Below, one piece after another: positions 20,576-42,475 of a DNA stretch of 64,000 nt (within the stretch, counting starts at the first letter, position 1; each line of letters opens with the position of its first letter). The notes under the pieces were generated by a model that saw only the letters and a list, made by a program, of their open reading frames with translations, ran no database searches and was not told the DNA's origin. This DNA is from a virus (Duplodnaviria; Caudoviricetes), in the IMG/VR virus record IMGVR_UViG_3300032270_000543, positions 85,887 to 149,886 of that record; one strand, given 5' to 3'. A program made the translations under genes and the position numbers.

Positions 20576-20779
20576 ATGATGAAGTTTACCCATTTCCTCT
20601 CGTCCCTCGCTGAAGCCACCACCATACAACGGGTGGCGCGTACCCTGTTCCCACGCAGCACACAGCGTAAAATAGAACAGCGTCAAGCAGCACGGGGCTG
20701 GGCAGCAGTCCGCCGCGCACAGGAAAAGAAACTAGCCGCATACGAAGCCCGCAAAGCCGCACGAAAGGCACAGCCATGA
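20576..20779 (+). CDS. small basic internal-head-type protein
   Basis: N-terminus MMKFTHFLSSLAE; CTACATA motif upstream. Confidence 0.6.
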   Translation: MMKFTHFLSSLAEATTIQRVARTLFPRSTQRKIEQRQAARGWAAVRRAQEKKLAAYEARKAARKAQP

Positions 20780-21321
20780 AACCATTTCTTGACCCGTTTC
20801 CGTTCCGTAATCCCGAAAACCGCAGCGATCTGGCAGCGGTAATTGCTGAAATCACAACGGAAAAGACTCCTGCTCCCATTCCGCCAAGCAAGGCTGGCAC
20901 ACGGTACGACAAGTACGGGGACAAGTTCGCCAAGAAGAGCGTACCCACAAAGGCGAACCCCACCACTCCCCGCGTGAGCGAACCCCTGAAGACCGAAAGC
21001 GTGGTGGCTGAATCCCACTCCCGCGCTGCACTGGAGCGACTGTCCACCACCGAACTGCGGGAATTGAAAAAGAAGTACGAGCGGCTGGTGCTGCGGGGCG
21101 ACCGCAAGGCTTCCGAAGAACTGGCAACCATTCGTGGTCTGCTCCGTAGCAAGGGCGGCGGACACGCACTGGACGAAGCCGCAACCCCATGCGAACGCGC
21201 TGCACTGGCGCGGCTGAAGAGCGCAAACACCGCCGACCTACAGGACGCGCCTGGTGCAGCAGGTGAGCGGGCACACGCGCGGCTCCACAAGACCATTGGT
21301 AAAGTGCTGAAGAGTAAATAA
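20776..21321 (+). CDS. internal-head-type protein
   Basis: ATGA-coupled; IAE/VAE/LDE sites; terminator at ~21348-21372. Confidence 0.65.
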   Translation: MKPFLDPFPFRNPENRSDLAAVIAEITTEKTPAPIPPSKAGTRYDKYGDKFAKKSVPTKANPTTPRVSEPLKTESVVAESHSRAALERLSTTELRELKKKYERLVLRGDRKASEELATIRGLLRSKGGGHALDEAATPCERAALARLKSANTADLQDAPGAAGERAHARLHKTIGKVLKSK

Positions 21322-21386
21322 ATGCAGTCCACCTTGGCAAACGATCAGCCCCCGCAAGGGGGTTTTTCTTTTGGCTAAATAAGTGC

Positions 21387-22112
21387 ATGAAGCCATTCCG
21401 CCAGTACATCACCGAGCGTCTTGCCATTGAGGACAACCCCAATGCGTACACGCCACCCGCTACGAGTGGAGCGCGTAGTCGTGCAGACATTGCGTACGAG
21501 CGGCGGCAAGCACGGCTTTACGGTGGAGTCATGGCACGGGTAGCCGCAAAGGCTCTTGCAAAGTCGCAAGCACAGCACCGCACACAGGCGGCGCGTCAGC
21601 CGTTTCCGTGGAGCGGTGGAGGCTACAACATGAAGCCAGGCTGGTGGCATCCCACCAAGCAGTGGTTCCTGTTCACCCGCGACTACCATGTCACGCAGAT
21701 TGTAAAGAATCCACGGGCATTCGGCATCTCCACCGCAGAACTGAATGGGGGACTGCTGAAGGAAGCAGAGCATTTGGTGTCGCGCCACATGAATTGGTAT
21801 GACAGCGAAGGCACTCCACAGGCACACACAGCCGAAAGTGTGCGCGACAGCATTTTGAAGACGGACATTGATCTGGCTTATGAAGTGCAGCGCGTGGCGT
21901 ACATGAAGGGCTGGCTGAAGGTGTACTCAGGAAGCGCACGAAATTCACCGTCACTGGAAGGCATCAACGGCGACTCCATTCGTGCAGCACTGCGCGAGAT
22001 CAGCGAGAGCGGTGGCAACTTCAACACAGTCGTGGTGGAGCGCGTTGGACTGAATCGCGGACTATCGGATTTCAAGCGGTACAATCCAAACGAGTGGAGA
22101 ACCGTGTCGTGA
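21387..22112 (+). CDS. internal-head-type protein of unknown function
   Basis: N-terminus MKPFRQYITE; CTAAATA at 21375-21381. Confidence 0.75.
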   Translation: MKPFRQYITERLAIEDNPNAYTPPATSGARSRADIAYERRQARLYGGVMARVAAKALAKSQAQHRTQAARQPFPWSGGGYNMKPGWWHPTKQWFLFTRDYHVTQIVKNPRAFGISTAELNGGLLKEAEHLVSRHMNWYDSEGTPQAHTAESVRDSILKTDIDLAYEVQRVAYMKGWLKVYSGSARNSPSLEGINGDSIRAALREISESGGNFNTVVVERVGLNRGLSDFKRYNPNEWRTVS

Positions 22113-22621
22113 AGTCGTTTCGCGTCCACATCACAGAATACTTTTTTCGTGGTGCAAATCCCACGGTGGATCTTGTGGTGTTTCGTGAAGGCGCGAACGG
22201 AAAAGAACTGCTGCTCATCAAGCGCAAGACTGGCAGCGTGGAAGGCGGCAAGTGGGCAATCCCTGGTGGCTTCATCAACACCACGGCACAGCGCGGAGAA
22301 GAGTGGAAGGGTGGGGCGGAATCGCCTCTGCAAGCAGCGGTTCGTGAATTGGAAGAAGAAACAGGACTGCGACTCACCCCTGCACAGCAGCGAATGATAA
22401 AGCATATCGGAGTTTTCGAGGGTGGTGGACGCGATCCACGCGACAGTGCAGAATCGTGGTCGCGCTCCCATGCGTTCACCGTTACGCTTCCGAAGGGCTT
22501 CAATCCACGGGTTCGCGGTGCAGATGATGCAAGCGCAGCAGAGTGGTTTCCCGTGAACAAAATGCCTCAACTTGCATTCGATCACTCTGAAATAGTAAAA
22601 CGCGCAAGGAAAATCGCATGA
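22109..22621 (+). CDS. Nudix hydrolase (ADP-ribose pyrophosphatase-like) with capsid-targeting-like leader
   Basis: WAIPGG...AAVRELEEETGL Nudix box, RDPR, GADDA, LAFDH as in NadM-Nudix/NrtR-type domains; GTG start MKSFRVHITE. Confidence 0.88.
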   Translation: MKSFRVHITEYFFRGANPTVDLVVFREGANGKELLLIKRKTGSVEGGKWAIPGGFINTTAQRGEEWKGGAESPLQAAVRELEEETGLRLTPAQQRMIKHIGVFEGGGRDPRDSAESWSRSHAFTVTLPKGFNPRVRGADDASAAEWFPVNKMPQLAFDHSEIVKRARKIA

Positions 22622-23190
22622 AGTCTTTTACTCAACATCTACGCGAAGCCGTGATCTCCAAGACCAAAGCCGTAAAGGGCGCACGGAAGCCACGCGGCTA
22701 CAAGAAGACCGCAGAGAAGACTCTTGAAAAGTTGCGTGCTGAAACCACATGGGACGGCAAGAACTACGCTGCATACGATTCAACAGGGCACGACAACCCT
22801 GCGCCGCACTGGTTGGAGAAGTGGGGACTGCCGCCCACAACCGATGTACAGACGCTGCGCGGCTACTTGCCGCTGCTGTGGTGGTGGGACAACGGCAAGA
22901 TCGTGGTGTACGAGATTCCACCTGATGCCGATGCGCTTGGTGCCATGCACGGTGATCTGCCTGAATACCTTACTGCTGCAAAGAAGGCACGACACGCAAG
23001 CGGCATGACTGACTATCAGGGTCGCGTGGATCGCTTCCGCAAAACTGTATCGCTCATCTCTGCGGCAACAGGACAGAATCTCCTGCGTGATCGCGCACTT
23101 CAGCGCGGCAAGAACCGCGTCATCAACAATCTGGCGCGTATGTTCCCAGGCTACACGGTGATCGACATGGATACGGAGGGTGCAATATGA
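22618..23190 (+). CDS. internal-head-type protein of unknown function
   Basis: N-terminus MKSFTQHLRE; ATGA-coupled. Confidence 0.75.
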   Translation: MKSFTQHLREAVISKTKAVKGARKPRGYKKTAEKTLEKLRAETTWDGKNYAAYDSTGHDNPAPHWLEKWGLPPTTDVQTLRGYLPLLWWWDNGKIVVYEIPPDADALGAMHGDLPEYLTAAKKARHASGMTDYQGRVDRFRKTVSLISAATGQNLLRDRALQRGKNRVINNLARMFPGYTVIDMDTEGAI

Positions 23191-23996
23191 AGCGATTCGT
23201 GCAACACATGGACGAAAAGTGGTCGCAGAAATACAAGCGGTCAATTAATTGTTCACATCCCAAGGGATTCTCGCAACGAGCGCACTGCCAAGGACGCAAG
23301 ATCCACGAAGGCTCACATGACTTCAAGGATTTCAAAGATCCGTGGGCTGTGATGTCACCTGAAGACCGCAAAGAAGCAAATCGCCTGACAATCAAGATCC
23401 TGAAAACCATGCCCGCTTCACCACGGCAGCGAGAACTGCAAGCCAAGCGAGATGCAATTTTGAAGAAGTACGGGATTGGTCAGAAGAAAACCGTGAAAGA
23501 AGGCGTGGAACAAGGCGACACACCGCAGCCCAAACCCGAGTACTTTCGTAAGCCGTTCAACATCAGCGGCAAGATTGTGCAGTTGCATCCTGTGTTTGAT
23601 ATTCCCGTGAAGACCAAGAAGTACAGGAACACGCGCTTCCGCATTGGAGAACGAGATGGGAAGAGTCCGTATGTGGATACTCCTGGTCAGAAAGCGTATG
23701 ATGCCAAGATGAGCGTGTGGCGATGGCGTGTTCGCATTCAGACTGATGAAGGCTGGATGCTCATGGGCTACATTGGCACATCGGATCGCAAGGAAGGGTT
23801 GCCGCCCATTCGCTTGGGTGACACCGTTGAAGTCACTAATTTGAAGTTGTCGCAGATGACAGGCGGAAATCAGATGACCTACGCTGATTCGTGGGTAAAG
23901 GGCGGCTACACCACATACACGGACAAGGCTGTGGACTACCGCTCCGAAATTTTCTCTCGTCAACTGCACGGAAAGGTGAAGCGTAAAGCCGTATGA
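23187..23996 (+). CDS. modular internal-head-type protein
   Basis: MKRFVQHMDE then KWSQKYKRSINC..PKGFSQRAHC module; IHE and VKE junctions. Confidence 0.75.
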   Translation: MKRFVQHMDEKWSQKYKRSINCSHPKGFSQRAHCQGRKIHEGSHDFKDFKDPWAVMSPEDRKEANRLTIKILKTMPASPRQRELQAKRDAILKKYGIGQKKTVKEGVEQGDTPQPKPEYFRKPFNISGKIVQLHPVFDIPVKTKKYRNTRFRIGERDGKSPYVDTPGQKAYDAKMSVWRWRVRIQTDEGWMLMGYIGTSDRKEGLPPIRLGDTVEVTNLKLSQMTGGNQMTYADSWVKGGYTTYTDKAVDYRSEIFSRQLHGKVKRKAV

Positions 23997-24739
23997 TAGA
24001 CTTCCGTTCATATCTCACCGAACTGTTTGACACAAAGTTTTCCCTGCACAGCATGGGCTACAACCAATTCATTTTTCATGTGCAGGAAAAAGACGGTCGC
24101 TTGATGCCTGTTCCTGATCGTGGAAGCAAACTCACGCAGTGGGTGGAAACGGAATTGGGAGTCACGCCAGAGAATCACTTTGACAGTCTGCATAAGTTCT
24201 ACACAAAAAAAGCAAGAGTGTATGTGTACTCGGTGGAGTTTACTCCACTTGTGCAGATCCGAAACGAATACCCTGAATTTTTGCTGTTCTACGGTTTGGA
24301 GCCTGACGGCATCTACGAGTTGTCGTTTTCTCGCCACGCAACATCGCTTGAGCGTATGCCGCCTCGTCCGTATCCAGTTGGCTCAAAACCCAAAGACATC
24401 AGCAAGTTCTATTGGAAATTTGATAGCGGCGGCACGGACGAAGACCTGAACTGGTTGAGTACAGGCGGCGCGGCTTCCGTGCTTGGCGCGGTGGTGGACG
24501 CTTCGCGTGAATTCGTCAAGAACAACCATCCCGTTCGCGGAATCATCATTGGAACCAAGACCAGTGCCAATCCTGCGCGTGGTCGCATCTACAAAGCACT
24601 TGCGCGTAAAGCAGCCGCCGCAGTGGGCGGCACGGTGCATGAGTTGGACATTGCGCGTGAGGGCATGGCAGCACCCACCATTGTTTGGTTGGACAAACAG
24701 CACAAGTTTGGTGAGTTGTATCAGGGAGGTAAAGCGTGA
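23993..24739 (+). CDS. internal-head-type protein (domain shared with the N-terminus of the next gene)
   Basis: MIDFRSYLTELFD; VLGAV..EF...K...RGRIYK pattern. Confidence 0.75.
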   Translation: MIDFRSYLTELFDTKFSLHSMGYNQFIFHVQEKDGRLMPVPDRGSKLTQWVETELGVTPENHFDSLHKFYTKKARVYVYSVEFTPLVQIRNEYPEFLLFYGLEPDGIYELSFSRHATSLERMPPRPYPVGSKPKDISKFYWKFDSGGTDEDLNWLSTGGAASVLGAVVDASREFVKNNHPVRGIIIGTKTSANPARGRIYKALARKAAAAVGGTVHELDIAREGMAAPTIVWLDKQHKFGELYQGGKA

Positions 24740-26091
24740 ACACATTTCGCTCCTATCTCACTGAACTGTTTGATCGTCCGCTTCCTGTGCGTGAAATGAA
24801 GCGGATCGGTCACGGCATGACAACCATTGAAGTCACCTATCAGGCACAGACCGAAAACGGTCAGTACCTGAACATTGATATTACAAAGATCAACAACGGG
24901 TGGGAGATCAACTTCACGCTTGACGGCTCACATGAACTCACCCACGCAGGCAAGCCGTACCGCATACTGGCAACGGTGATTGAAGCCGTAAAGATGTTCT
25001 TGAAGTGGCATACCGAAACATTTGAGGAATTGCCCAAACAGTTTGACATGGTGTCCAAGACATCCGAAGGCAAGCGCGATGCCGTTTACAGTGCCATGAT
25101 GCGGCGGTTTGGCAAGCAGTACGGTTATGAGATCACAGATCGCATGGTGAGCGGTCAAGGACCGCTTCAGAACAAGCGCACGGTGACCACGGCTAAACTG
25201 GCTGTGCTACCGTGGAGCAAAGTGGAAGCGTCTGCCCATCCACCCAAGGGCATGAAGTGGAAAGATCCGCTCAATCCACTGCGCGGCATGATTCCTGAAT
25301 CAAAGGAAGCACGCAAGGCTCTGCGCGTATTTGATTTTGATGATACCCTCGTACACACCAATGCTCCTGTGGGCGTTGTTCGTGACGGCAAGCAAGTACG
25401 CAAACTCACTTCCATGAAGTTCAGGGAGTATTTGCTGCAACCAGGCGAGTCATACGATTTCAGTGCAGCAAACGAAGTTGTTGATCCTCGTCCCATCGGT
25501 GCAGTGCTGAAAGTGCTGCGTCAGGTGATTGCACAGGGAAAGAAAACCGTGATTCTCACGGGACGAGCAGACGGAAACGCTGTTCGTGAATGGCTCAAAA
25601 CCATCGGCATCAACATTGAAGTGTTTACCGTGGGACACAAGGAAGCCACGCACACATCAATTGCACAGCGAAAGCGTGATTGGTTGGTGGCTGCAATCCA
25701 ACAAGGCTATAACGACATTGAGTTCTGGGATGACAATGCAAAAAACATTGAACACGCCAAAACACTGAAGACGGATTTCCCCCACATCAAGTTGCGGACA
25801 CGGCTTGTGAAATACAAGTCGAAGCAGGGCGTACACGAAGAGCGGGACTACAAAGCCGAATATCAAAAAATGTACGGCGGCGACAACCCCACGCCCAAGC
25901 AGCGCAAAGCCATGAAGAAGAAAACCGCACGGAAGCGTGTGCTGCGGCGCATGGGGCGAGAAGGCAACAGCACAGACGGCAAGGAGATTGACCACAAGAA
26001 CGGCAACGCACTGGACAGCCGCCCGTCCAACCTGCGTTTGGTGTCCCGCCACACCAACCGCTCCAAAGACAACAACAAGTGGCGTAAGTAG
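24736..26091 (+). CDS. three-module protein: unknown domain + HAD-family phosphatase + HNH endonuclease-like module
   Basis: MNTFRSYLTELFD; FDFDDT...LTGR...K...WDD; EIDHKNGNALDSRPSNL...N. Confidence 0.8.
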   Translation: MNTFRSYLTELFDRPLPVREMKRIGHGMTTIEVTYQAQTENGQYLNIDITKINNGWEINFTLDGSHELTHAGKPYRILATVIEAVKMFLKWHTETFEELPKQFDMVSKTSEGKRDAVYSAMMRRFGKQYGYEITDRMVSGQGPLQNKRTVTTAKLAVLPWSKVEASAHPPKGMKWKDPLNPLRGMIPESKEARKALRVFDFDDTLVHTNAPVGVVRDGKQVRKLTSMKFREYLLQPGESYDFSAANEVVDPRPIGAVLKVLRQVIAQGKKTVILTGRADGNAVREWLKTIGINIEVFTVGHKEATHTSIAQRKRDWLVAAIQQGYNDIEFWDDNAKNIEHAKTLKTDFPHIKLRTRLVKYKSKQGVHEERDYKAEYQKMYGGDNPTPKQRKAMKKKTARKRVLRRMGREGNSTDGKEIDHKNGNALDSRPSNLRLVSRHTNRSKDNNKWRK

Positions 26092-26180
26092 TATTTTTGA
26101 ATCGTCAGGTCTTTCCGCTCCGACACGCTGGCATTACTAAATAATGCTGACAAGCCAAAATCACTCAAAGGAGAACTCTT

Positions 26181-26909: not shown

Positions 26910-26915
26910 TAGCAA

Positions 26916-27398: not shown

Positions 27399-27400
27399 AC

Positions 27401-29731
27401 ATGGAAGACCTAGAGCCATACAAGAGCCTACGCACAATCATTTTCGAAATTCAGGAGGCTGCGGCTGTTGCTGCTGCTCCAAAGAAGCCAGCACCAAAGG
27501 CTTCGCAACAATCATCACAGCAGAATGCTCCGCAATCAGCGCACAGACCAGGCGAATCATGGGAAACGGCTAGTGGCTGGGCAGCAATGAACAAAGACGG
27601 TGTGAAGGAATACGGATTCTCGGATGAAAAAGCAGCAAAGTCTTGGGCAACAGGCACAGGACCAGGCACGGGCAAGAGTGGCGAGGGTATGGATACCTCT
27701 CGTCCTGTTCAGTTGGACAAGAATGGTGAAAAGCAGAAACCAACAGGAGCAGCACAACCGAATGCAACACCCACAGCAGCCGCAGGAGCAAAACCCGCAG
27801 CACCTCAACCCGCAGGAGGAGCCGCCCCTAAAGCGCAAGCGGCAGCCAGTGATACGCAGCGTACAGCACAACCGCAAGGTAGCCAAAAAGGTGCAGAACA
27901 AAAGCCTGCACAAGCGCAACAGCAGCCAGCGGAAGATCCAGAAGTAAAGTCTGTAACAGGAGAAGATCCGCAGTCCGCGTTTGACGCTCAAGGGCAGGGC
28001 GAGACTGGCAAGGACAACGCTGGTTTCAAGAAGACGGGCAAGAAGGCAAAGTTCAAGACCGAAGAAGACAAAGCCAAGAGTGTCCGAAAGTCTAAAATGC
28101 TTGCTTCGGCAATCAAGAGCGGAAAGATGACTGGTCCGCAGGACGATTCCGAATCGCTCACTGGCAATGCGGAAGCAGAACGCGCTTATGTCGCGGAACT
28201 GAACCACGCTGCTCTGCAATCGGGAATGGGTGGAGATGTGATCGACCACGAACCGTGTTCAAAGATGTTTGCTGCACTGGGCTTTTGCTACGACAAGGAA
28301 GGCAAGCAAACGGACAAGGGCATCAAGCGTCCCGAAATGCCGCAGTTGTCAGGAATCGTTGATACAGACAGAACGGACTCTGTTGCATACAAGGAAGCAC
28401 TGAAGCAAGCCAAGCGTAAGAAGGCAGCAAAGGACAAGTTCAAGACCAACGATCCCACGAAGGATCAGTTGAAAGAAGTGTCCGATGACGAGATTGCTGC
28501 TGCACAGCCATCAAACGAAGAGACTGGATCTGAAGAAGTAAACTTCGAAGAAAAGTTCATTGAAGCACTGAAGAACGCGGGCTATGATGTAGAGGAAACA
28601 GAAGTCAATCCTTCCACACTCAAGCCCATTCAGACAGAGATGCAGGGATCAAAGATTGCAGGAATGTACAGCACCATTGCTGCTGCTGAAGTTGACCCAC
28701 AGACATACGGCAAAGAAGCCGAGCGTCTGAAGGCTCCCATTTTTACATCGGGAGGTCATGTGATTGACGGTCACCACCGTTGGGCTGCCATGATTGGTGC
28801 AGACATGGCAAATGGCAGGGGCACAGACATGAGGATGAAGACACGCAACATCAAGAAGGGCGGCAAGGATGTTGACATTGACGAGATGGTTGCGTTCTCC
28901 AACGCATTCCAACACGCAATGGGAATCACGAATCAAGACCGCAACAGCAAGCCTACTCGCAAGAATTTCTCCGATGCGGAATTGAAGACATCGGAAGAGA
29001 TTGCCAAGGGACTCGGCATCAAGGAAAACAAGCCACAGGCAAAACCACAACCACAGAAGGAATGGACCATGAGCAAGTTTGGCGCAAAGCGTATGCAGAA
29101 CCTTGTCGAATCCCTGAACGAAGCCGCCAAAGCCAAGTTCAAGAAGCCGCGCATCGCAAGCGATGAGCCTGATACATTCGGTGGCGCACCACTAGAGAAG
29201 TCCAAGGCTTCGGTTGGTGGAAAGATGGGCATCAAACCCATCAGCATTGCACAGCAGGTCACCCGCGATGCTCGTTCTGAACTCGCTGTGAAGAACAATG
29301 AGAAGACCGCAGCCGATCTTGTTGCAACGATGGACAAGAAACCTGAAGGCACCACATTTGAAATCTACGGCAAGAAGAACGGCAAAGAAACATCCGTCAA
29401 GGTAAAGAAGGTGCGCTACATGGGCAGTGTGGTGTACATGGTTGGAACCAATCAAGTCGAACTGCGCGTTGCGGGTACAGGACTTCAGATCATCAACAAG
29501 AAGACTAATCGTATGCTGCTTGACCGTGGTGCAGACCTGATTTGGGAAAGCGCAGACTTGTGTGATGTCGGTATGATCTCCATCACAGAGGCAGAATCAA
29601 AGATGCCCAAGAATCGTAAAATGAACGATTGGGATTTGATGTATGTGGATGACTACAAGCGGAAACTCATGGACAAGAAACTCGCTGCACAACAGGCTGA
29701 ACGCGCAAAGGGAAACACGCCGAAGAAGTGA
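27401..29731 (+). CDS. large modular protein with ParB/Srx-like catalytic domain
   Basis: LKPIQTE...PIFTSGGHVIDGHHRWAA; A/P/Q-rich linker; possible internal start at 29069. Confidence 0.75.
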   Translation: MEDLEPYKSLRTIIFEIQEAAAVAAAPKKPAPKASQQSSQQNAPQSAHRPGESWETASGWAAMNKDGVKEYGFSDEKAAKSWATGTGPGTGKSGEGMDTSRPVQLDKNGEKQKPTGAAQPNATPTAAAGAKPAAPQPAGGAAPKAQAAASDTQRTAQPQGSQKGAEQKPAQAQQQPAEDPEVKSVTGEDPQSAFDAQGQGETGKDNAGFKKTGKKAKFKTEEDKAKSVRKSKMLASAIKSGKMTGPQDDSESLTGNAEAERAYVAELNHAALQSGMGGDVIDHEPCSKMFAALGFCYDKEGKQTDKGIKRPEMPQLSGIVDTDRTDSVAYKEALKQAKRKKAAKDKFKTNDPTKDQLKEVSDDEIAAAQPSNEETGSEEVNFEEKFIEALKNAGYDVEETEVNPSTLKPIQTEMQGSKIAGMYSTIAAAEVDPQTYGKEAERLKAPIFTSGGHVIDGHHRWAAMIGADMANGRGTDMRMKTRNIKKGGKDVDIDEMVAFSNAFQHAMGITNQDRNSKPTRKNFSDAELKTSEEIAKGLGIKENKPQAKPQPQKEWTMSKFGAKRMQNLVESLNEAAKAKFKKPRIASDEPDTFGGAPLEKSKASVGGKMGIKPISIAQQVTRDARSELAVKNNEKTAADLVATMDKKPEGTTFEIYGKKNGKETSVKVKKVRYMGSVVYMVGTNQVELRVAGTGLQIINKKTNRMLLDRGADLIWESADLCDVGMISITEAESKMPKNRKMNDWDLMYVDDYKRKLMDKKLAAQQAERAKGNTPKK

Positions 29732-29739
29732 GGTGAATC

Positions 29740-30645
29740 GTGGCAGACGCAAAACTTGATCCCCGTGAATTCAAAATGGCTGGTGATGCCATTACATTCA
29801 CGGAGTACAAGAAAAGATTGAATGCTGGTATCTCAAAGATGCCAAAGGATCTTGGTTTATACCTTGATCTGTTGATTGGTTATTTGAATGGCGAAAAAGT
29901 TTCGGACGATGACTTGAAGAAAGCCCTCTCCAAACCCTCTGTGGTTTTGCACAAGAGAAAGATACTTACAGACTTCGGTGAGACACTTGGTCCTTTAGGT
30001 ATCGTCAGGTTCAAGTTGTTTGATGGCACACCCGCAAACATAATGATCAGATATCCCACTCGTCAGAATGAGGGTATGTACGACTACATGATGTCTTTCA
30101 ACAAAGGTAAAAATTGGAGAAAGATATCGGCAAAGGCAAAGACAGGAAAGTCGAACACGGTCAAGCCAGGAGACATACTCAAACTCCTTGAGGGTGCAAC
30201 CATTCCAACAGAATTGAAAACTGCATACGAATTCGTCAAGATCATTTCGGAAAACACCACTAACGAAGGCTCACAGATTGCTATGAAGTTTTTGCAGTCA
30301 AAGGGTGTTTCAGGAATACCATCCAAGAAATTTGACAAAAAAGTTCTGTGTGAAACAGTGTTTGAAGACATCACAAAGGACACAGGCAATCGTTTTGGCA
30401 ATCAGATGAATGATCTTTTCTGGTTGGCTATTGAGAATGGAGAACTGAACTTCATCAAATTCGGATTGCATGGCGGCACACCAATCTATGATCGTGTCAA
30501 TGACGGCATAGATGTTGTGTTCGAGGACGGTAAAAAGATGAAGCGTGTGGCAAACAAAGAAGACATCAAGCCGCGAGTGTATTTCAGAGGCAAGGGACGC
30601 GAGGCGGGAGAGAAGCGGGCAGAAAAGCCAGGATTCCAAACATGA
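29740..30645 (+). CDS. restriction-endonuclease-fold (PD-(D/E)xK-like) protein
   Basis: DFGE.LGP...NEGMYDY...ISAK motif order; visibly AT-richer than neighbours. Confidence 0.55.
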   Translation: MADAKLDPREFKMAGDAITFTEYKKRLNAGISKMPKDLGLYLDLLIGYLNGEKVSDDDLKKALSKPSVVLHKRKILTDFGETLGPLGIVRFKLFDGTPANIMIRYPTRQNEGMYDYMMSFNKGKNWRKISAKAKTGKSNTVKPGDILKLLEGATIPTELKTAYEFVKIISENTTNEGSQIAMKFLQSKGVSGIPSKKFDKKVLCETVFEDITKDTGNRFGNQMNDLFWLAIENGELNFIKFGLHGGTPIYDRVNDGIDVVFEDGKKMKRVANKEDIKPRVYFRGKGREAGEKRAEKPGFQT

Positions 30646-31184: not shown

Positions 31185-31187
31185 AGC

Positions 31188-32000: not shown

Positions 32001-32038
32001 ATACTTGTATCATCCCTACATACTAACAGGAGACTACC

Positions 32039-32218: not shown

Positions 32219-32220
32219 AC

Positions 32221-32889
32221 ATGAAGACCTTTCAGCATGAACTAGTGACGCTAGACGAAAACATAGAAAGCGTAGAAAGCGGCAACGGCAGGAGGTATCA
32301 GACCCCTGACGGTCTTTTTCCGTCTGTGACCACCGTGACAGGATGGAAGAAGCGAGCATTTTTTGCAAAATGGCGGCGCGACAATCCTGAAGAATCCAAG
32401 CGAGTACTATCCCGTGGCACAAAACTACACGCTATCATCGAAACCTATCTCAAAAACGATCTTACGCCAAATACGCTCTCTGAGGCGGCGGGGACCAGTG
32501 AGGCGGATCTTTTTCTGTCCATGCAGTCAGATATTGATCGCATCGGGAAGATTTACGCCATCGAAGTGCCGCTGTGGTCGAAGAAGATCGGCTTGGCTGG
32601 ACGAACGGACTGCATTGGTGAATTCGATGGAGTGCCGTCAGTCATTGACTTCAAGTCATCGAACTATCCAAAGTCAGAGGACGCCATTCAGGACTACTTC
32701 ATGCAGGCTACCGCTTACGCGCTCATGTGGCAGGATCGCACGGGTCAGCAGTTGCGAAATATTGCCATTCTGATCGGTGTAGAGGACGGAGGCTGTCAGG
32801 TGTTCACCGCTGATCCAATGGACTATGTTCCTGATTTGGTGGAAGCAATACAGACTTATCGTGCGGAGCAACCTGTCCGCGTTTCCTAA
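32221..32889 (+). CDS. PD-(D/E)xK exonuclease (RecB/Cas4-like phage exonuclease)
   Basis: PSVTT, RGTKLH, AGRTDC, IDFKSS, Q..AYA. Confidence 0.9.
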   Translation: MKTFQHELVTLDENIESVESGNGRRYQTPDGLFPSVTTVTGWKKRAFFAKWRRDNPEESKRVLSRGTKLHAIIETYLKNDLTPNTLSEAAGTSEADLFLSMQSDIDRIGKIYAIEVPLWSKKIGLAGRTDCIGEFDGVPSVIDFKSSNYPKSEDAIQDYFMQATAYALMWQDRTGQQLRNIAILIGVEDGGCQVFTADPMDYVPDLVEAIQTYRAEQPVRVS

Positions 32890-32904
32890 ATACGGAAGCG
32901 GAGG

Positions 32905-34113
32905 ATGCCTTTGATACGATTCACCGAACATCTGGTTGAGGCTGTAAAAAAGACTGGAAAGAATGTCCACTTGGAGCATCTTGAAGACGAGATGCTGAAC
33001 AGCGGATACTCTGGCTTTGTCAGCAGCATGAAGTCCATCACTGGTTTGATGGACGCTTTGGGCGCAAACGAACCAAGCGCATACGATGTCACCGTGAAGT
33101 GGGACGGCGCACCCGCAATATTCTGCGGAACAGATCCATCAACTGGCAAGTTCTTCGTTGGTACGAAGAGCGTGTTCAATGTGACACCCAAGTTAAACTT
33201 CACTGATGCGGACATAGACGCAAACCACCCCGAGGGTGGACTAAACGAAAAACTGAAACTCGCTCTGAAGCACCTGTCTAAACTAGGTGTGCGTGGTGTG
33301 CTGCAAGGAGACTTCTTGTTCAAGCACGATACTCTGCAACGAGAAAAGATTGACGGAAAAGCCTATCTCACTTTCCAAGCAAACACCATCAGGTACGCAG
33401 TGAGTGCCAACAGCGATTTGGCGAAGCGTATGAGTGCAGCCAAGATGGGAATCGTGTTCCATACTGCATACGAAGGCAACACCATGCAGGACATGAGTGC
33501 GCGGTTCAACCCCGATATCTCGTACTTGAAGAAGAGCAAGGATGTGTGGTTCGACAACGCCACACTTCGTGTTGCCTCTGGCTCGGCACTGTTCAGCCCA
33601 ACGGATCGTAGAACAATTGAAGCCTCAATCCAATCGCTCACGCGCACTGCCGAATCTCTGAAAGCAATACTCAACGCCATCGGAAAGAACGATGGGGTGA
33701 AACAGGCTATCAAAGGATACATCAACTCTCTTGTATCTAAAGGGATTGCCAGTTCACACGCTGATGTGAATCAATTGATTGCATTCCTGCAATCAAAATC
33801 GGCACTCGTCAGGAAGAAACCAAGCACAAAGCCAACACCCACGATGGAATGGATACGGAAAAACCGTAATCAGATCGGTCGGGTGTTCGCCCTACATAAC
33901 TCTGTCGCGCAGTTGAAGTTGGTTGTGCGCGACAAACTTGCATCCCTTGAGGGTGAGGTTTCGACCTTCATCAAGGACGGCAAGGGATATCGCGTCACGA
34001 CACCCGAAGGTTTCGTGGCAATCGACCGCTTGACCAACCAAGCGGTGAAAATTGTAGATCGCCTTGACTTCTCGCGCAGCAACATGACCGTAGAGAAGTC
34101 TTGGAAAAAGTAA
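32905..34113 (+). CDS. DUF6267-like, ATP-dependent ligase-fold protein with capsid-targeting-like leader
   Basis: HLEHLED, TVKWDGAPAIF (KxDG motif I), QGD, PEGFV, VKIVDR; MPLIRFTEHLVE; CTAAATA at 32886. Confidence 0.8.
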   Translation: MPLIRFTEHLVEAVKKTGKNVHLEHLEDEMLNSGYSGFVSSMKSITGLMDALGANEPSAYDVTVKWDGAPAIFCGTDPSTGKFFVGTKSVFNVTPKLNFTDADIDANHPEGGLNEKLKLALKHLSKLGVRGVLQGDFLFKHDTLQREKIDGKAYLTFQANTIRYAVSANSDLAKRMSAAKMGIVFHTAYEGNTMQDMSARFNPDISYLKKSKDVWFDNATLRVASGSALFSPTDRRTIEASIQSLTRTAESLKAILNAIGKNDGVKQAIKGYINSLVSKGIASSHADVNQLIAFLQSKSALVRKKPSTKPTPTMEWIRKNRNQIGRVFALHNSVAQLKLVVRDKLASLEGEVSTFIKDGKGYRVTTPEGFVAIDRLTNQAVKIVDRLDFSRSNMTVEKSWKK

Positions 34114-34147: not shown

Positions 34148-35203
34148 GTGATCCCCGTGGCTAAACAGAAAGAGAAAACTCAGTCTGCGCGACCTAGCAA
34201 AACCATCGTGGTTGCATTCGGTCGCTTTCAGCCACCAACTTCAGGACACCAACTGCTCGTTGACAAAGTGGTGGAGACTGCCAAGAAACATGGCGCAGAA
34301 CACGCCATGTTCAGCAGTCGCACCAACGATCCAAAGAAGAACCCTCTAACCCCCAAGCAGAAGTTTCACTATCTGAAGAAGTTTTTTCCCGAAGCGAACT
34401 TCATCGACAACGCCAAGATCAAGAATCCAGTGGATATGCTGTTCTGGTTGGCAGACAAGGGCTACGATCATGTGCTGCTTGTTGGTGGAGAAGACCGCGA
34501 GGGTGGTTATGAAATGTTCAAGGACTTGATGAAACCCACCGCCACGGAAAGGCTCAAGTTGAAGTCGTTGAACATTGTCAGCGCAGGCAAGCGCGATGAG
34601 AAGGCTGGTGGAGTTGTGGGAATGAGCGCATCTAAACTTCGCGCCGCCGCTGCTGAAAATGACTTTGCGACATTTAAAACTGGAATGCCTCGCCGCGTAA
34701 ACACAGCAGACGCAAAGGCACTGTTCAATGACCTAAAGAAAGGTATGCGTACAGTCCGCAAGGAAGATGTGGACTACGGTGACATTTATGCCACTGCTGC
34801 GATTCGTCTTGTGGAAAGCGACAAGAAAAAGCGCAGACCCGATACACCTGGTCAGACTGGTGGCTTCTCCAAGCACAATAAAATATTCCCCACTCCCCCG
34901 TGCAAGATTGACGAAGACTTGGCGCGGTGGTTCAAAGAGAAGTGGGTGAATATTGGCGGCAAGAAAGACCCCAAGACAGGGCAGTATCCGCCCTGTGGTC
35001 GCCATGACACCTCTACGGGAAAATACCCCAAGTGCCGTCCCGCCAATAAGGTAAGCAGTGAAACCCCCGAAACCGTGGGCGAGATGACTCCCAAAGAGAG
35101 AAAATCGGCTGTGATTCAAAAAAGACGGGTTGAACCAGAGACACAAAGAAGCGGAAAAGGCAACGCCCCGCATATGACTAGCCACTTGAAAAAGCCTAAA
35201 TAA
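34148..35203 (+). CDS. HxGH-superfamily nucleotidyltransferase ('cytidyltransferase') + C-terminal basic module
   Basis: FGRFQPPTSGH, KNPL, G.DR, MSASKLR; IDE junction before LARWFKEKWV module. Confidence 0.85.
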   Translation: MIPVAKQKEKTQSARPSKTIVVAFGRFQPPTSGHQLLVDKVVETAKKHGAEHAMFSSRTNDPKKNPLTPKQKFHYLKKFFPEANFIDNAKIKNPVDMLFWLADKGYDHVLLVGGEDREGGYEMFKDLMKPTATERLKLKSLNIVSAGKRDEKAGGVVGMSASKLRAAAAENDFATFKTGMPRRVNTADAKALFNDLKKGMRTVRKEDVDYGDIYATAAIRLVESDKKKRRPDTPGQTGGFSKHNKIFPTPPCKIDEDLARWFKEKWVNIGGKKDPKTGQYPPCGRHDTSTGKYPKCRPANKVSSETPETVGEMTPKERKSAVIQKRRVEPETQRSGKGNAPHMTSHLKKPK

Positions 35204-36456: not shown

Positions 36457-37929
36457 ATGAGCGAACACAAGAGATTCAAGGCATTCCGCAGCGAACTGAC
36501 CGAGAGTGAGTACAAGGAAACCCTCACGGGCTATCCCAATCGTGGCATCAACACCGAAGACGGACCCGTCAACTTTGGTCCTGAGCGCATGGCACAGATC
36601 AACGCCATGTTGAATGCCATCAGCCACAGCACCTTTCAGTCTCCCAACGAAGCGTTCATCCGCATCAAGACGCGCCTGAACCTGCTCATGCTGGACTTCC
36701 CGTGGACACCGTATCTGTGGCAGGATGGCGGCACTGGTCCTGTTACTCTCACCGTAACCCTGTTCGGTCGCGTTGACGGCATTGACGGCAACACAGGCAA
36801 TGTCGTGATGAACGGCAAGGCTAATCCCACCGCAGGACTGCAAGAGTTTACCCTGCTGGCTTCCATTGAAATGGCAGAAAACGGGCTGTATCGCGTCAAC
36901 GCCAAACTCATGCCCAAGGCTGATGCAGTGGTAGCCGAAGAAGGCGTAGAGCATGACGGCGACAGCCTTGACGAGATGGCACAGACTCCTGCTCGTCAGC
37001 GGGACATGGAACACGCGATTCAGCGTGCCGATGTCAAGGCTCAACGCGGCTACGAAGCCAAGATGAACAAGACGGGCAAGGCTGCGGAGCGTGGACGCAA
37101 ACTGGAAGACAAGCACGATACTGCTGTGCGCCGTCTGATTGCGCGTGATACCAAGGAATACGAGTCTGAAAAACTGTACGGTCGCGGCGGCAAGATCGTG
37201 AAGGGCAAGCGCAAGCCCGTGAAGGAAGAGGTTGAGCCTATTGAAGAAATGCACAAGGCGGGAGATTCCGTCAAGGTTCCCCACAAGGGCAAGATGGTGA
37301 AGGGTAAGATCGTTCGCCACGACAGCGGCGGCAGCGGCAAGGCACAGCAGCACGGCGGCGGTTATGTGGTTGATGTTGGCGAGTACGGCAGCATCACCGT
37401 TCCCCACCACAAGATTGTGAAGGAAGCCGCCGAACAGATTGACGAGTTGAGCAAGAAGACGAAGGACGCATATGTTGCCAAGCGTGGTTCGCAACTATCG
37501 TCCATGTTGAGCGGACACACCCGTGGCAAGCAACTCACTGGCAAGCAGCAAGCCAATGCCGTCAAGGGCATCAAGCAGGCTACGGGCGTGAGCGAAGAAC
37601 TCGTTGGCGGTCAGAAGAAGATTGATGCCAACAAGAACGGCAAACTTGACGCACAGGACTTCAAGATGCTCCGCGCCAAGAAGAAGCCTGTGAAGGAAGA
37701 GACTGTTGCCGAAGCCAAGAAGTTCAAGGCATGGACTCCTCGCTTGGACAAACTGATGAAGAACCGTGACGCGGTTCGCAGCAAGCCCAAGAAGACCGTC
37801 AAGGAAGACAACACCACATATGTGGGCGGAATCTCCCTACAGCAGCCAGACCCAACCGTTTCGCAGGCGGATCAGAGCGGCAAAGGTCGCCGCTTCCACA
37901 AGAAGGCGCAAAAAGGCGTCTTCGAATAA
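36457..37929 (+). CDS. modular internal-head-type polyprotein
   Basis: KRFKAFRSELTE leader; modules bounded by LDE, VKEE, IEE, IDE, VSEE, VAE, VKE; EF-hand-like DANKNGKLDAQD. Confidence 0.78.
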   Translation: MSEHKRFKAFRSELTESEYKETLTGYPNRGINTEDGPVNFGPERMAQINAMLNAISHSTFQSPNEAFIRIKTRLNLLMLDFPWTPYLWQDGGTGPVTLTVTLFGRVDGIDGNTGNVVMNGKANPTAGLQEFTLLASIEMAENGLYRVNAKLMPKADAVVAEEGVEHDGDSLDEMAQTPARQRDMEHAIQRADVKAQRGYEAKMNKTGKAAERGRKLEDKHDTAVRRLIARDTKEYESEKLYGRGGKIVKGKRKPVKEEVEPIEEMHKAGDSVKVPHKGKMVKGKIVRHDSGGSGKAQQHGGGYVVDVGEYGSITVPHHKIVKEAAEQIDELSKKTKDAYVAKRGSQLSSMLSGHTRGKQLTGKQQANAVKGIKQATGVSEELVGGQKKIDANKNGKLDAQDFKMLRAKKKPVKEETVAEAKKFKAWTPRLDKLMKNRDAVRSKPKKTVKEDNTTYVGGISLQQPDPTVSQADQSGKGRRFHKKAQKGVFE

Positions 37930-37948
37930 ACACTGATCTCTTTTCATC

Positions 37949-41700: not shown

Positions 41701-42287
41701 TAGAAAGAACGGCATCGAATGGAGGTTTTGCACAGTTTGTCCACAGTCTTCAGTATGTAAGAGCGATTCTGCGTGGAAATTCAGAAATTGCAACTCATGG
41801 AATGTGTCCTTGGGTAAGCGGTCCTGGCTTTGGATTTGGTGCCCAATGGCACTACAACGAAGACAATCGGTATTGGTGGGAGCAGAATTACCACTTGTTG
41901 GTATCAGGAACTAGTTTCTTCAACTTCTTTGATCAAGGCGGGGAATGGCTTACAATGGAGAAACTGCTGTCCAACTGGCGGAATCTCACCAGCAACTCCC
42001 GCTGCATTTCAGCAACAAAGAGCAAGATAGCCTTGAACTCCGAAGTGTTTACTAGCGGTGGCGTTTTGAAAGAAGGACCAAACAAGGGATTGTATCTGTG
42101 GAGAATCACGGTTCGTCCTGGTCCTCTGGAAGAAACTGTTACGCTTGTGCAAAACCGCCGTCAGGACATTCCACGCACACTTACGGTTCCTGGTGGAGAG
42201 TATCCCGATCACAACAACATGGGTACACGCGGTGTGTGGTTGATCACTTCGTCATCACTGGCTCCAGAGTACAGCATTCAAAAATAA
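38766..42287 (+). CDS. large virion-associated protein, possibly with a carbohydrate-active C-terminal domain
   Basis: ATGA-coupled start at 38766; two N-terminal repeat domains, G/T/D/N-rich insert, Y/G-rich globular C-terminus. Confidence 0.75.
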   Translation: MTSVSQYTSSTVNVPTCNAWANIVLGNQLNSSLISDHYGITGTRRIVAGHHGICFSNSNEFASGEYVVVYTPELRYDGSDCVLFVGCDYNMEKSSTWVPSGGVCAGPTASTEVRVWFMNSSQAGFVSGSGLGTNTGRGPHISNNPLPDIGTGSNGNGVANGTVDDTGTGPGTGGGTDPDDNTNTGQGPGSGPGSNRDVTFGEVALNMAAFSFSKDNEIHSRLGGTFDFIPGASGYGLQGNTYASTAMNLSEKRKAVAYGTIVIPGIETTASTVHPYFENSLGIAGLSAGENSVFDVYFNGTMKNSSYCVILTAESEQGYRGGFDPNLPGDIPTEGEFSVVAVRAGSNGDTKTPSFFRIEQYKKDAASGFWGVSPIAMKAGRTERIHFMVFGETSNGKSWLTNPNPLSSFGGSLQNTDYNVWAVDFFGRSNASAPSVLPMIWESGSTPYIHPEAGYTAHPDDFIRQAAEKLKTVPEGRRVYCPGMYYTVAPVSRTNPVSSERLVQYYAIKDGYTYSSTLYPAGITNSEVKINGITFYGATLAGTRRVLSLYADNQVEDIKTSLENFLTKLSEYGASVNYISDDAENLAGVGMYDVGGGLATEAKGGGYAQGRQLLTNQGMIGNTLEMLFDYYGISAAGSCGAKINAFDPELLRAWAYDPRNTTYQFSTDGVTASDSPTISSRFLDIYKSLFAYYGGTGTTASSYTGAIDLLYNNGTNVSSTYRSAYWATDYSPYQGMTTNNFARFHIAYAHEQTMVELYYGHYRYKAYKPALDRGATYTQYDSVKVNLEDLPFASDANSYPKVGSSPVRQGMIAPVLYGDGLGAWGNDYHLIRNIGYFPNPTNDAEKYYFSGYTYPQGRPYSEYGSIRDGCKHFYPRTALLGGVGGSSPGFTGNTAANTGVQGATIAVAPASGGKTLEVWGGFTAKAGDYIWFRSHGASAYSTPFTVAAGLTASTGQKKTLSVFEDLGGYGLVAGHTFEIERTASNGGFAQFVHSLQYVRAILRGNSEIATHGMCPWVSGPGFGFGAQWHYNEDNRYWWEQNYHLLVSGTSFFNFFDQGGEWLTMEKLLSNWRNLTSNSRCISATKSKIALNSEVFTSGGVLKEGPNKGLYLWRITVRPGPLEETVTLVQNRRQDIPRTLTVPGGEYPDHNNMGTRGVWLITSSSLAPEYSIQK

Positions 42288-42295
42288 GGACTAGC

Positions 42296-42475
42296 ATGGC
42301 ACAAAACATCAAGAAATTCTCTGCATTCATTAAAGAAGATATGCCACCTCCCATCGCACCTCCCACAAATATTGCGGACGGTTCAAAAATTGCAGGGCTT
42401 CCACCTGATCTTCCCCCTGTTCCACAACGCCGCAATAAATCAAAAATAGGTCGCCGTAAACCCCCTGTAGCCTAA
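42296..42475 (+). CDS. small Pro-rich internal-head-type protein
   Basis: IKKFSAFIKE leader; AAGGA SD. Confidence 0.65.
   Translation: MAQNIKKFSAFIKEDMPPPIAPPTNIADGSKIAGLPPDLPPVPQRRNKSKIGRRKPPVA

Follow-up and report, generated by a model that had tools for sequence, protein, structure and literature searches.

Proteins packaged in the head of bacteriophage T4 are the first phage products to face the defences of the host and one of them, IPI*, blocks a restriction enzyme. In the giant phages phiKZ and SPN3US, a prohead protease related to gp21 reportedly matures many head-internal proteins, which are then ejected (PMC5694885; PMC7411985). The Dar anti-restriction proteins of phage P1 are likewise said to be packaged in the head (PMC9024508; PMC12810830). 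To our knowledge, T4 Alt is the only precedent for a head-retained enzyme that passes through the tail. Alt is a head-packaged ADP-ribosyltransferase, which is processed by gp21, is also processed at its C-terminus and is injected (PMC9026906). The T4 internal proteins (IPs) IPI, IPII and IPIII carry a capsid targeting sequence (CTS), and proteins bearing the same tag stay in the head and are injected (PMC9026906; PMC3012670). In the T4 genome (NC_000866), ipII and ipIII start with MKTYQEFIAE and ipI with MKTFKEF...ITE. Mutagenesis by Mullaney and Black indicated that residues 4 and 7 are involved in targeting and residues 8 and 10 in processing (cited in PMC9026906).

The current study concerns a stretch of 64,000 nucleotides from an uncultured relative of phage T4 (the window; positions 85,887 to 149,886 of IMG/VR record IMGVR_UViG_3300032270_000543), in which a series of genes share similar N-termini. 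We consider it likely that these N-termini are T4-type capsid targeting sequences, operating together with late transcription, core binding, gp21-type cleavage and exit with the DNA. The mechanism is already known from T4; the lineage differs, as the nearest named relatives of this phage are Methylophilales phage Melnitz and the cyanomyoviruses (a Kyanoviridae-like lineage, not Straboviridae). Our literature search found no paper tying a T4-type tag to Kyanoviridae, and no virion proteomics of tagged relatives.

The leader motif and the genes that carry it

When the entire genome (149,886 bp) is translated in six frames, the strict motif [KRIN]xFxx[YH][ILM]xE is matched seven times, and all seven matches are residues 2-10 of ORFs in a single plus-strand cluster of the window (21387-34113), whereas about 0-0.2 matches are expected by chance at internal positions. 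As a positive control, a start-anchored pattern recovers ipII and ipIII in T4. An eighth gene has the canonical F-x-x-F-I-x-E spacing, set four residues in.

21387..22112, plus strand: tagged gene 1, 241 aa, MKPFRQYITE followed by R
22109..22621, plus strand: tagged gene 2, 170 aa, GTG start, MKSFRVHITE followed by Y; Nudix hydrolase
22618..23190, plus strand: tagged gene 3, 190 aa, MKSFTQHLRE followed by A; basic stretch behind the tag
23187..23996, plus strand: tagged gene 4, 269 aa, MKRFVQHMDE followed by K
23993..24739, plus strand: tagged gene 5, 248 aa, MIDFRSYLTE followed by L
24736..26091, plus strand: tagged gene 6, 451 aa, GTG start, MNTFRSYLTE followed by L
32911..34113, plus strand: tagged gene 7, 400 aa, TTG start, MIRFTEHLVE followed by A; DUF6267
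42296..42475, plus strand: eighth tagged gene, 59 aa, proline-rich and basic, MAQNIKKFSAFIKE followed by D

The seven canonical tags have F at residue 4, Y or H at 7, I, L or M at 8 and E at 10, and these conserved positions are the same four that were mapped in T4. The register is also that of the CTS on T4 IPI, IPII and IPIII, with M1, K2, aromatic residues at 4 and 7, an aliphatic residue at 8, Glu10 and often Ala11 (PMC9026906), which bears out the resemblance noted in the preliminary description. Ala follows the Glu in two of the seven tags, and R, Y, K or L in the other five; Ala directly after Glu is the commonest arrangement in relatives and is the one found in T4 ipII, ipIII and ipI. 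Coupling between the cluster genes is tight, their stop and start codons overlapping, and the tag is free of a hydrophobic stretch of the secretion-signal kind.

The carriers had been described as otherwise mostly unrelated, and this agrees with an all-against-all BLASTP comparison, in which no relatedness was detected past the first 16 residues (best E = 0.006), and with their differing families and folds. The exception is the pair at 23993 and 24736, which share about 40 N-terminal residues, more than the tag alone (hhalign probability 94%). The 30-nt stretches encoding the leaders have a mean identity of 55% and a longest common run of 8 nt, and synonymous codons vary at the conserved residues; therefore, the tag is shared as a peptide and does not represent a DNA repeat.

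Several of the tagged proteins resemble enzymes. The product of tagged gene 2 matches Pfam NUDIX (E = 1.3e-17, 64.5 bits against a cut-off of 21.1) and the MutT/NUDIX PHROG, and its Nudix box is intact (E-x7-REUxEExGU; here E-x7-R-E-L-x-E-E-x-G-L). That of tagged gene 6 comprises an N-terminal domain, a HAD phosphatase (DFDDT) and an HNH domain (Pfam HNH_3, E = 4e-8, 33.2 bits against a cut-off of 24.8); residues 189-394 match PHROG 415, a polynucleotide kinase family (E = 1.8e-12), and HAD motif I, DxDxT, is present as VFDFDDT. Tagged gene 7 encodes a DUF6267 protein (Pfam, E = 1e-101); the ATG at 32905 is not kept in relatives and the start at F-3 is. We predict that DUF6267 is a ligase-like nucleotidyltransferase. 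The segment T-x-K-W-D-G-A-P-A (KWDG) is invariant in an alignment of 16 orthologues, and the top 17 VIA matches of the AF2 model (pLDDT 79) consist entirely of RNA or DNA ligases (Z 9.1-6.0), among them 5cot (Z 9.1, rmsd 3.8, 182 residues aligned), REL1 (Z 8.0) and T4 Rnl2 (Z 8.0); Foldseek and a PDB sequence profile search returned nothing significant for this protein. In the model, the tag is disordered, of low confidence and apart from the fold. The product of tagged gene 5, which has no Pfam match, is a probable GNAT-like acyltransferase fold, as judged from its AF2 model (pLDDT 81, pTM 0.80); GNAT-family or related acyltransferases make up most of the top 50 VIA matches, with Z only 5.9-7.8, and the Foldseek matches have E >= 0.048.

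For tagged gene 1 no match was found in Pfam, PHROG or PDB, and it has a 97% orthologue in a related locus (L014). The tag of gene 3 is retained in orthologues (e.g. MHTFRQHLRE in L080), and in the close relative L005 the C-terminal part of gene 4 is joined to another tagged N-terminal module. Among 51 homologues of gene 5, the tag stays MIDFRSYLTE even at 28% overall identity, which suggests that it is under purifying selection. The eighth gene was skipped by the gene caller; AAGGA precedes its ATG and it is kept in nine related loci.

Three further genes carry variant tags, and one other ORF on the same strand is a weak candidate.

27401..29731, plus strand: variant-tag gene, 776 aa, EPYKSLRTIIFE or MEDLEPYKSLRTIIFE followed by I
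30642..31184, plus strand: variant-tag gene, 180 aa, MKPFKDLRD...IMFE, possible extended tag MKPFKDLRDHAFGSLQRIMFE followed by E
36457..37929, plus strand: variant-tag gene, 490 aa, KRFKAFRSELTE or MSEHKRFKAFRSELTE followed by S, tag two residues longer
20579..20779, plus strand: weak candidate ORF (20576), 66-67 aa, MKFTHFLSSLAE followed by A

All three variants are conserved in orthologues. In the 27401 product (PHROG 2859) the first 16 residues are conserved and the linker behind them diverges. The 30642 product has an acidic N-terminal half and a very basic C-terminal half, with a weak match to a head-scaffolding PHROG (E = 7e-5); its leader resembles the 19-residue leader of T4 IPI. A coiled-coil protein is encoded at 26916 in the same cluster. 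Outside the window, 3.3 kb upstream, lies a gene for a SAM-lyase-like protein that bears a variant of the tag; this gene has a late promoter.

Every N-terminus quoted in the preliminary description is found in the sequence at its given position; the 30642 leader was missing from that list. Its count of at least 11 leaders is not borne out as it stands: we count eight solid tags and three plausible variants, and two of the ORFs that it mixed in with these are weak. The one at 20576 has a low coding score (7.9) and neither relatives nor a family match were found for it, and YRSLTE at 10691 is encoded on the opposite, minus strand in a group of small genes. The statement that the leader sits on enzymes holds for the Nudix hydrolase, the HAD phosphatase with HNH and the ligase-like DUF6267. 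It was not confirmed for the ParB-like protein, which the description did not assign to a particular ORF: Pfam searches of the cluster outside 32039-32218 (21 ORFs at E <= 0.01, and the ten proteins without a match at E <= 5), PHROGs and, for three proteins, PDB sequence searches gave no ParB-like domain.

Late-type promoters and head-assembly genes

An intrinsic-terminator-like hairpin sits directly upstream of the leader array, and CTAAATA motifs resembling late promoters occur within it.

21347..21364, plus strand: terminator-like hairpin and T run, 7-bp stem with 5 GC pairs, tail TTTCTTTT
21375..21381, plus strand: CTAAATA late-promoter-like motif; the first tagged gene has its ATG 5 nt further on
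26137..26143, plus strand: CTAAATA late-promoter-like motif, upstream of 26181
32886..32892, plus strand: CTAAATA late-promoter-like motif, upstream of the DUF6267 gene
35196..35202, plus strand: CTAAATA late-promoter-like motif, upstream of 35221

The motif is also found 14-37 nt ahead of the gp22 scaffold gene, the genes in the gp68 and tail-tube positions and others. Genome-wide, 16 of 27 sites are at most 60 nt upstream of gene starts, compared with about 0.9 expected; head and tail genes are among the genes concerned, and the tagged cluster contains five or six of the sites. The motif is consistent with the earlier description of the tagged ORFs as late. A point against is that the first CTAAATA is only 5 nt from the ATG, compared with 14-37 nt at most other late-type sites, and its mRNA is possibly leaderless; a spacing of 5 nt is likewise seen at the site before 57482.

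The machinery for the use of a T4-type tag is present in this genome. It encodes a gp21-type protease (Peptidase_S77, PF03420, E = 5e-42, 140 bits; genome positions 29965-30396, minus strand) with 45% identity to T4 gp21, a gp22-type scaffold (PF25623, T4_CASP, E = 5e-59) and a capsid protein (Gp23, E = 6e-132), in the head gene order 20-67-68-21-22-23, as in T4. The sequence MLVE followed by A in its own gp23 aligns with FLTE followed by A in T4 gp23, which we take to be the maturation cleavage site, and this alignment is consistent with a retained [L/I]-x-Glu specificity of the protease.

Proposed fate of the tagged proteins

We propose a series of steps in which the tagged genes would be transcribed late from the CTAAATA promoters, residues 1-10, with their aromatic residues at 4 and 7, would bind the gp22-type scaffolding core, so that the protein is built into the prohead, and the gp21-family protease would cut behind [ILM]-x-Glu10, leaving the mature protein free inside the head. 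The mature protein would then stay with the DNA and leave along with it at infection; for this, folded enzymes of 20-50 kDa would have to be kept in the head and to pass through the tail. The tagged products of at least eight unrelated late genes are thus probably packed in the virion, and together with the DNA they may get into the host; a role early in infection, or against host defences, is something that we infer only. The motif alone is insufficient proof of packaging, because T4 gp61.1, a 54-aa protein annotated as hypothetical and encoded beside the primase gene, also starts with MKTFKEFIKE.

The tags could direct targeting and cutting at the prohead core for cargo that consists of assembly or DNA-condensing components, degraded or expelled at maturation, and not of delivered enzymes; we regard this as unlikely. 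In T4, the core components gp22, gp67 and gp68 are degraded or expelled at head maturation and many gp21 substrates are destroyed, not injected, and the present cluster does encode scaffold-like or charge-rich non-enzymes (30642, the coiled-coil protein at 26916 and the basic 59-aa protein at 42296). However, the catalytic motifs are intact in several tagged enzymes (Nudix box, HAD DxDxT, HNH, ligase KxDG) and a scaffold-filler role is hard to explain for this reason; moreover, T4 proteins with the same tag are kept in the head and injected (PMC9026906; PMC3012670). It is distinctly improbable that the N-terminus serves a purpose unconnected with head targeting, as a translation-initiation or mRNA signal, as a shared tag for regulation or degradation, or as a peptide for docking to another phage or host machine. 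Such a purpose would suit T4 gp61.1, whose identical start pattern occurs in an early-gene region, and the overlapping stop and start codons could place start regions under translational constraints. Against it, the peptide is what is conserved: the key residues show synonymous and codon-family changes, and shared runs are at most 8 nt. In addition, the conserved positions are those mapped in T4 for targeting and processing, a secretion-signal-like stretch is lacking, and the tags occur only in a cluster that contains late-type promoter motifs, with the cognate protease and scaffold encoded in the same genome. Leftover paralogy, i.e. tandem duplicates diverged except at the start, or chance is hardly credible, since the shared 40 residues of 23993 and 24736 stand against an otherwise undetectable similarity, distinct families and folds (Nudix, HAD/HNH, ligase-like, GNAT-like), one enzyme with both tagged and untagged orthologues, and a number of matches well above that expected.

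Read as T4-type capsid targeting, the locus resembles the T4 IP system in its protease family (gp21, Peptidase_S77), its gp22-type scaffold and its late-type promoters. It differs in being known from sequence alone, in having 8-11 tagged genes compared with three in T4, and in the nature of the products, many of which are 20-90 kDa and several recognisable enzymes, whereas those of T4 are small basic proteins; the tag is also found here on DUF6267, where it comes and goes between orthologues. As with T4 Alt, the head would take up enzymes, which the prohead protease would trim and which would reach the host along with the DNA before phage gene expression; in contrast to Alt, no ADP-ribosyltransferase was recognised in the cluster (a DRAT match, E = 0.079, is below threshold). 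The inner-body proteins of phiKZ and SPN3US have a different cleavage motif and longer propeptides, and the tag here is the short T4-type one.

More tentatively, and with considerable doubt, the head could be pre-loaded with a kit of counter-defence enzymes acting before any phage gene expression. The kit would include the ligase-like DUF6267 and the PNKP-type 3'-phosphatase/HNH protein as an RNA-repair pair, the Nudix hydrolase, the GNAT-like modifier and the SAM-lyase-like protein. It would share with P1 Dar, from a phage that is not T4-type, the idea of head-packaged proteins guarding the incoming DNA, and at DNA entry could counter anticodon nucleases, SAM-dependent restriction or BREX, and immunity based on nucleotide signals or NAD. 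In that case, the ten-residue tag would allow injected effectors to be predicted from sequence only in aquatic T4-like phages at large.

Turnover of the tag among relatives

Across 65 related IMG/VR loci, there are 100 cases in which the motif lies exactly three codons past a start codon, compared with 1-7 for composition-matched control patterns. Among 72 unique contexts in these relatives, the start is at F-3 in 58 and Ala follows the Glu in 30. About 19 credible tagged cargo families (from 21 clusters, of which two are spurious short ORFs) are found within 10 kb of DUF6267, and gene content differs among relatives whose DUF6267 is 98% identical. DUF6267, tagged here, is without the tag in cyanophage S-PM2 and in L047; the reverse is seen for an untagged neighbour.

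34157..35203, plus strand: cytidylyltransferase-type nucleotidyltransferase (GRFQPPTSGH) with DUF5872

Its orthologues are tagged in L032 and L038 (MQIKKFSDYITE) and in Melnitz (MKKFSEIIE). The unrelated carriers, the gain and loss between orthologues and the turnover of the tagged set among close relatives indicate that the tag is a portable module, much as in the variable IP loci of T-even phages, where the tag is likewise on unrelated, fast-turning-over genes (Repoila et al. 1994, cited in PMC9026906). At the level of sequence, the comparison shows a tag that is common to Straboviridae and Kyanoviridae-like phages and moves from gene to gene. If the tag works in this lineage, the set of injected proteins would be predictable from sequence in uncultured freshwater and marine T4-like phages, including the relatives of Melnitz and some cyanophages. 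Concrete candidates for new early-acting effectors are named here, and the majority of them fall outside all known families. A gp21-family protease can also occur without the tag, because S-PM2 has the same protease family and no canonical tag. The DUF6267 gene itself is found in 463 phage records, mostly of cyanophages.

The tag array and the genome that carries it

The window spans positions 85887-149886 of the IMG/VR source contig (149,886 bp, estimated completeness 83%), which belongs to a T4-type phage. Its genes include those for a prohead protease of the gp21 family (PF03420, E = 5e-42; genome 29818-30459), a scaffold of the gp22 type (PF25623, E = 5e-59) and a capsid protein of the gp23 family (PF07068, E = 6e-132), and the T4 gene order 18-19-20-67-68-21-22-23 is kept. 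Megablast of the 22-kb region revealed no DNA-level relative in the phage collection, and the nearest named phages, by protein search only, are Kyanoviridae, i.e. Methylophilales phage Melnitz and cyanomyoviruses. A codon-usage caller, trained on this same genome, gave 164 genes that cover 93% of the sequence. The tagged genes occupy a plus-strand block (about 20.6-42.5 kb of the window), bordered by minus-strand genes for CobS/CobT-like proteins and a class II ribonucleotide reductase.

The tag is a ten-residue N-terminal peptide resembling the T4 capsid targeting sequence (CTS), with F4, Y/H7, I/L/M8 and E10. When the entire 150 kb is translated in six frames, the pattern [KRIN]xFxx[YH][ILM]xE has seven matches, and all seven are residues 2-10 of an ORF inside the block, versus 0-0.2 N-terminal matches expected from the internal-position rate.

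Genes with a tag or variant tag (window start or span unless a record is named; slash, predicted cleavage point)
21387, plus strand, tag MKPFRQYITE
22109, plus strand, tag MKSFRVHITE
22618, plus strand, tag MKSFTQHLRE
23187, plus strand, tag MKRFVQHMDE
23993, plus strand, tag MIDFRSYLTE
24736, plus strand, tag MNTFRSYLTE
32911, plus strand, tag MIRFTEHLVE
42296-42475, plus strand, MAQNIKKFSAFIKE, same tag spacing offset by four residues, missed by the codon-usage caller
27401, plus strand, variant tag EPYKSLRTIIFE, conserved in orthologues
36457, plus strand, variant tag KRFKAFRSELTE, conserved in orthologues
30642, plus strand, variant tag MKPFKDLRD...IMFE, conserved in orthologues
G000:C1:82546-83388 of the source genome (locus L112:1547-2389), minus strand, 280-aa gene 3.3 kb before the window, start MKKFTQYLNAQQLSE/A
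NC_000866 18966-19130 (locus L111:967-1131), minus strand, T4 gp61.1, canonical CTS pattern, labelled hypothetical in the record

The ORF at 42296-42475 has a ribosome-binding site and is kept in nine related loci, and the sequence immediately after the variant tags of 27401, 36457 and 30642 diverges among orthologues. Where the preliminary description counted at least 11 leaders, eight are solid (the seven strict matches and 42296) and the three variants are plausible. Two of its items, the 20576 ORF and YRSLTE at 10691 on the minus strand, are weak candidates. The exonuclease at 32221 (MKTFQHELVT...) was rejected as a tagged gene, as it lacks an in-register [ILM]-x-E and a distant orthologue starts differently.

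Comparison with T4 and the proposed route into the head

The resemblance to the T4 CTS, which had been proposed from the sequence alone, was confirmed on the T4 record (NC_000866), where ipII and ipIII begin MKTYQEFIAE and ipI begins MKTFKEFTSTTTPVSTITE, each followed by A, in a register identical to that of the tags in this phage. Residues 1-10 of IPIII suffice for head loading, with residues 4 and 7 chiefly responsible for targeting and residues 8 and 10 for processing (Mullaney and Black, summarised in PMC9026906); positions 4, 7, 8 and 10 are the four conserved here. In T-even phages the tag, its cleavage and the variability of the tagged proteins are already established (PMC3012670, PMC9026906), and the tag has been proposed in review as a possible general head-loading route of T4-like phages (PMC9026906). 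We found no paper that associates cyanophages, pelagiphages or Kyanoviridae with a capsid targeting sequence, subscription journals being outside the coverage, and Sullivan et al. 2010 are silent on internal proteins and on any such sequence.

We consider it probable that the T4 mechanism operates here in another lineage. The tagged genes would be expressed late, residues 4 and 7 of the tag would dock each protein on the scaffolding core, the prohead protease would cleave after Glu10 and the head would retain the processed protein; injection and early action would be a further step beyond that retention. Alignment of the phage’s own capsid protein with T4 gp23 places MLVE/A over FLTE/A, the latter being the maturation site of gp23, in keeping with a conserved cleavage preference.

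As a positive control, the start-anchored DNA pattern recovered ipII and ipIII from the T4 record, and it also matched gp61.1, a 54-aa protein whose gene adjoins the primase gene and which starts MKTFKEFIKE; because gp61.1 of T4 has the tag motif too, the motif alone does not prove packaging. It is unlikely that the tagged proteins serve as core components and are lost at maturation, and less likely again that the conserved N-terminus has a different role. Paralogy or chance is the least credible source of the shared N-termini. Two checks dispose of simple explanations: all-against-all BLASTP without the first 16 residues yields no significant pair (best E = 0.006), and the 30-nt tag-coding stretches are only 55% identical. 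Those stretches share no run longer than 8 nt and vary in synonymous codons at F, Y/H, I/L/M and E, and therefore the conserved object is the peptide.

Predicted identities of the tagged proteins

Of the enzymes that the preliminary description had placed behind the leader, the Nudix, HAD/HNH and ligase-like proteins were recovered, but no ParB-like domain was found in Pfam (E <= 0.01 for 21 ORFs of the cluster, E <= 5 for ten proteins that had no match), in PHROGs, or in PDB sequence searches of three proteins. The product of 22109 is a predicted Nudix hydrolase with an intact box, and that of 24736 a predicted HAD phosphatase of the polynucleotide-kinase/phosphatase type (DFDDT) with an HNH domain; a shared fold between the N-terminal domain of 24736 and 23993 was not supported, hhalign covering the first 41 columns only. 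The gene at 32911 is assigned to DUF6267, in which TxKWDGAPA is invariant across 16 orthologues. In the wide structure search VIA, RNA or DNA ligases make up all of the 17 best matches to its AF2 model (pLDDT 79, tag disordered), among them 5cot (Z 9.1), REL1 (Z 8.0) and T4 Rnl2 (Z 8.0), and neither Foldseek against PDB nor sequence profiles gave a significant match; the protein is predicted to be ligase-like, short of a proven ligase. The best 50 VIA matches to the AF2 model of 23993 (pLDDT 81) are mostly GNAT-family or related acyltransferases, phage Mu Mom included, at modest Z scores of 5.9-7.8; no PDB entry was a significant Foldseek match, and ESM Atlas returned viral hypothetical clusters only. 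For both models, consistent families came from the VIA search only. Assignment of 23993 as a DRAT (ADP-ribosyltransferase) was dropped, its E value of 0.079 missing the threshold.

Neither Pfam (at E <= 0.01 and again at E <= 5) nor PHROGs nor PDB sequence searches yielded a match to 21387, 22618 or 23187, and ESM Atlas gave nothing above 0.76 for 21387. Pfam and PHROGs gave no significant match to 36457, the sub-threshold Pfam rows being EF-hand-type only (E 0.025-0.22), and the sole match of 27401 is PHROG 2859, a family without assigned function.

The cytidylyltransferase at 34157-35203 (plus strand) contains the motif GRFQPPTSGH. Positions 5-209 of the PHROG 395 profile match this protein and positions 246-370 match the tagged Nudix protein at 22109-22621, so that the two resemble the halves of a nucleotidyltransferase-Nudix fusion; the S-PM2 transferase is joined to DUF6267 instead. 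The short cysteine- or aromatic-rich motifs KYKRSINCSHPKGFSQRAHC and PSAYANGWAVKQY recur in 23187-23996, 34157-35203 and 35221-36444 (all plus strand), PSAYANGWAVKQY within a DUF5872-matching region.

The 280-aa gene upstream of the window has TATAAATA 24 nt ahead of its start, and its Pfam matches are S-AdoMet_lyase (33 bits against a cut-off of 28) and DUF3293 (40 bits); PDB sequence searches gave no match, the SAM-lyase assignment coming from Pfam alone. As a lead only, it may encode a head-targeted SAM-degrading anti-restriction enzyme. We tentatively suggest that an RNA-repair pair, a Nudix hydrolase, a GNAT-like modifier and a SAM-lyase-like enzyme could form a pre-loaded counter-defence kit. 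The array is directly testable and gives many candidate effectors without a known family.

Tag mobility among relatives and expression signals

Searching IMG/VR with the DUF6267 protein gave 65 loci (738 kb in total). F-x-x-[YHF]-[ILMV]-x-E lies exactly three codons after the start codon of an ORF 45 codons or longer in 100 cases, versus 1-7 cases for each of three composition-matched control patterns in the same loci; the loci are not independent, and DUF6267 itself accounts for about half of the 100. The start is at F-3 in 58 of 72 unique contexts, Ala follows Glu in 30 of the 72, and near-T4 tags occur (MISFKTFIAEA, MIKFKQFIAEA, MQSFKEFIVEA); the consensus is M-I-S-F-K-T-Y-L-T-E-A. The tagged ORFs form about 19 credible families (21 clusters, two being spurious short ORFs), nearly all without a Pfam match.

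The tag moves between genes. Close relatives with 98% identical DUF6267 differ in the tagged genes that they carry upstream. DUF6267 has the tag here and in the majority of loci, and in cyanophage-type loci (S-PM2, L047, L059) begins a few residues ahead of its first conserved block; the cytidylyltransferase is tagged in loci L032 and L038, Melnitz and C48C1, but not here. In the 23993 family, MIDFRSYLTE is identical in homologues of only 28% overall identity. Melnitz, C48C1 and Synechococcus phage S-CRM01 are tag-bearing relatives that can be cultivated.

Convincing tags in whole-record scans
S-PM2: 0
HTVC008M: 0
S-CRM01: 4
Phage C48C1: 6
G001, a 113-kb relative: 5

Of the 27 CTAAATA copies in the genome, 16 are co-oriented and at most 60 nt upstream of called starts (about 0.9 expected), including those of the scaffold, the gp68-position gene, the tail-tube-position gene and two large fibre-like genes. 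In the block, sites of this type precede 21387, 26181, 32039 (ATAAATA), 32911, 35221 and 42516, and no further [CAT]TAAATA copy occurs on its plus strand. The array starts directly after the region’s sole strong terminator (21347-21364), and the cluster shows no excess of sigma-70-like promoters (10 versus 12.2 expected). The CTAAATA copies at 21375-21381, before 21387, and before 57482 (minus strand) lie only 5 nt from the start codon, versus 14-37 nt elsewhere. Both genes may have leaderless late mRNAs, or the site at 21375-21381 may serve another gene than 21387.

Three further arrangements were observed in the window. Opposite-strand ORFs of about 850 aa each overlap at 16940-19579 (plus) and 16982-19483 (minus); coding signal and a PHROG 459 match (E = 1e-139) are confined to the minus-strand ORF, and the plus-strand ORF is an antisense artefact. 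The adjoining small minus-strand genes 5972-6184 and 6181-6408 are identical in their first 32 residues (MSEEEREYLNETIRNLNNQLVDALRERDEARR), which looks like a tandem duplication. At 47060-49691 (minus strand), a tandem trio of about 290 aa each with similar starts (MSYGIDATND, MAHGVLNIND, MAYGVQSPNQ) adjoins a fibre-like gene of 1293 aa.
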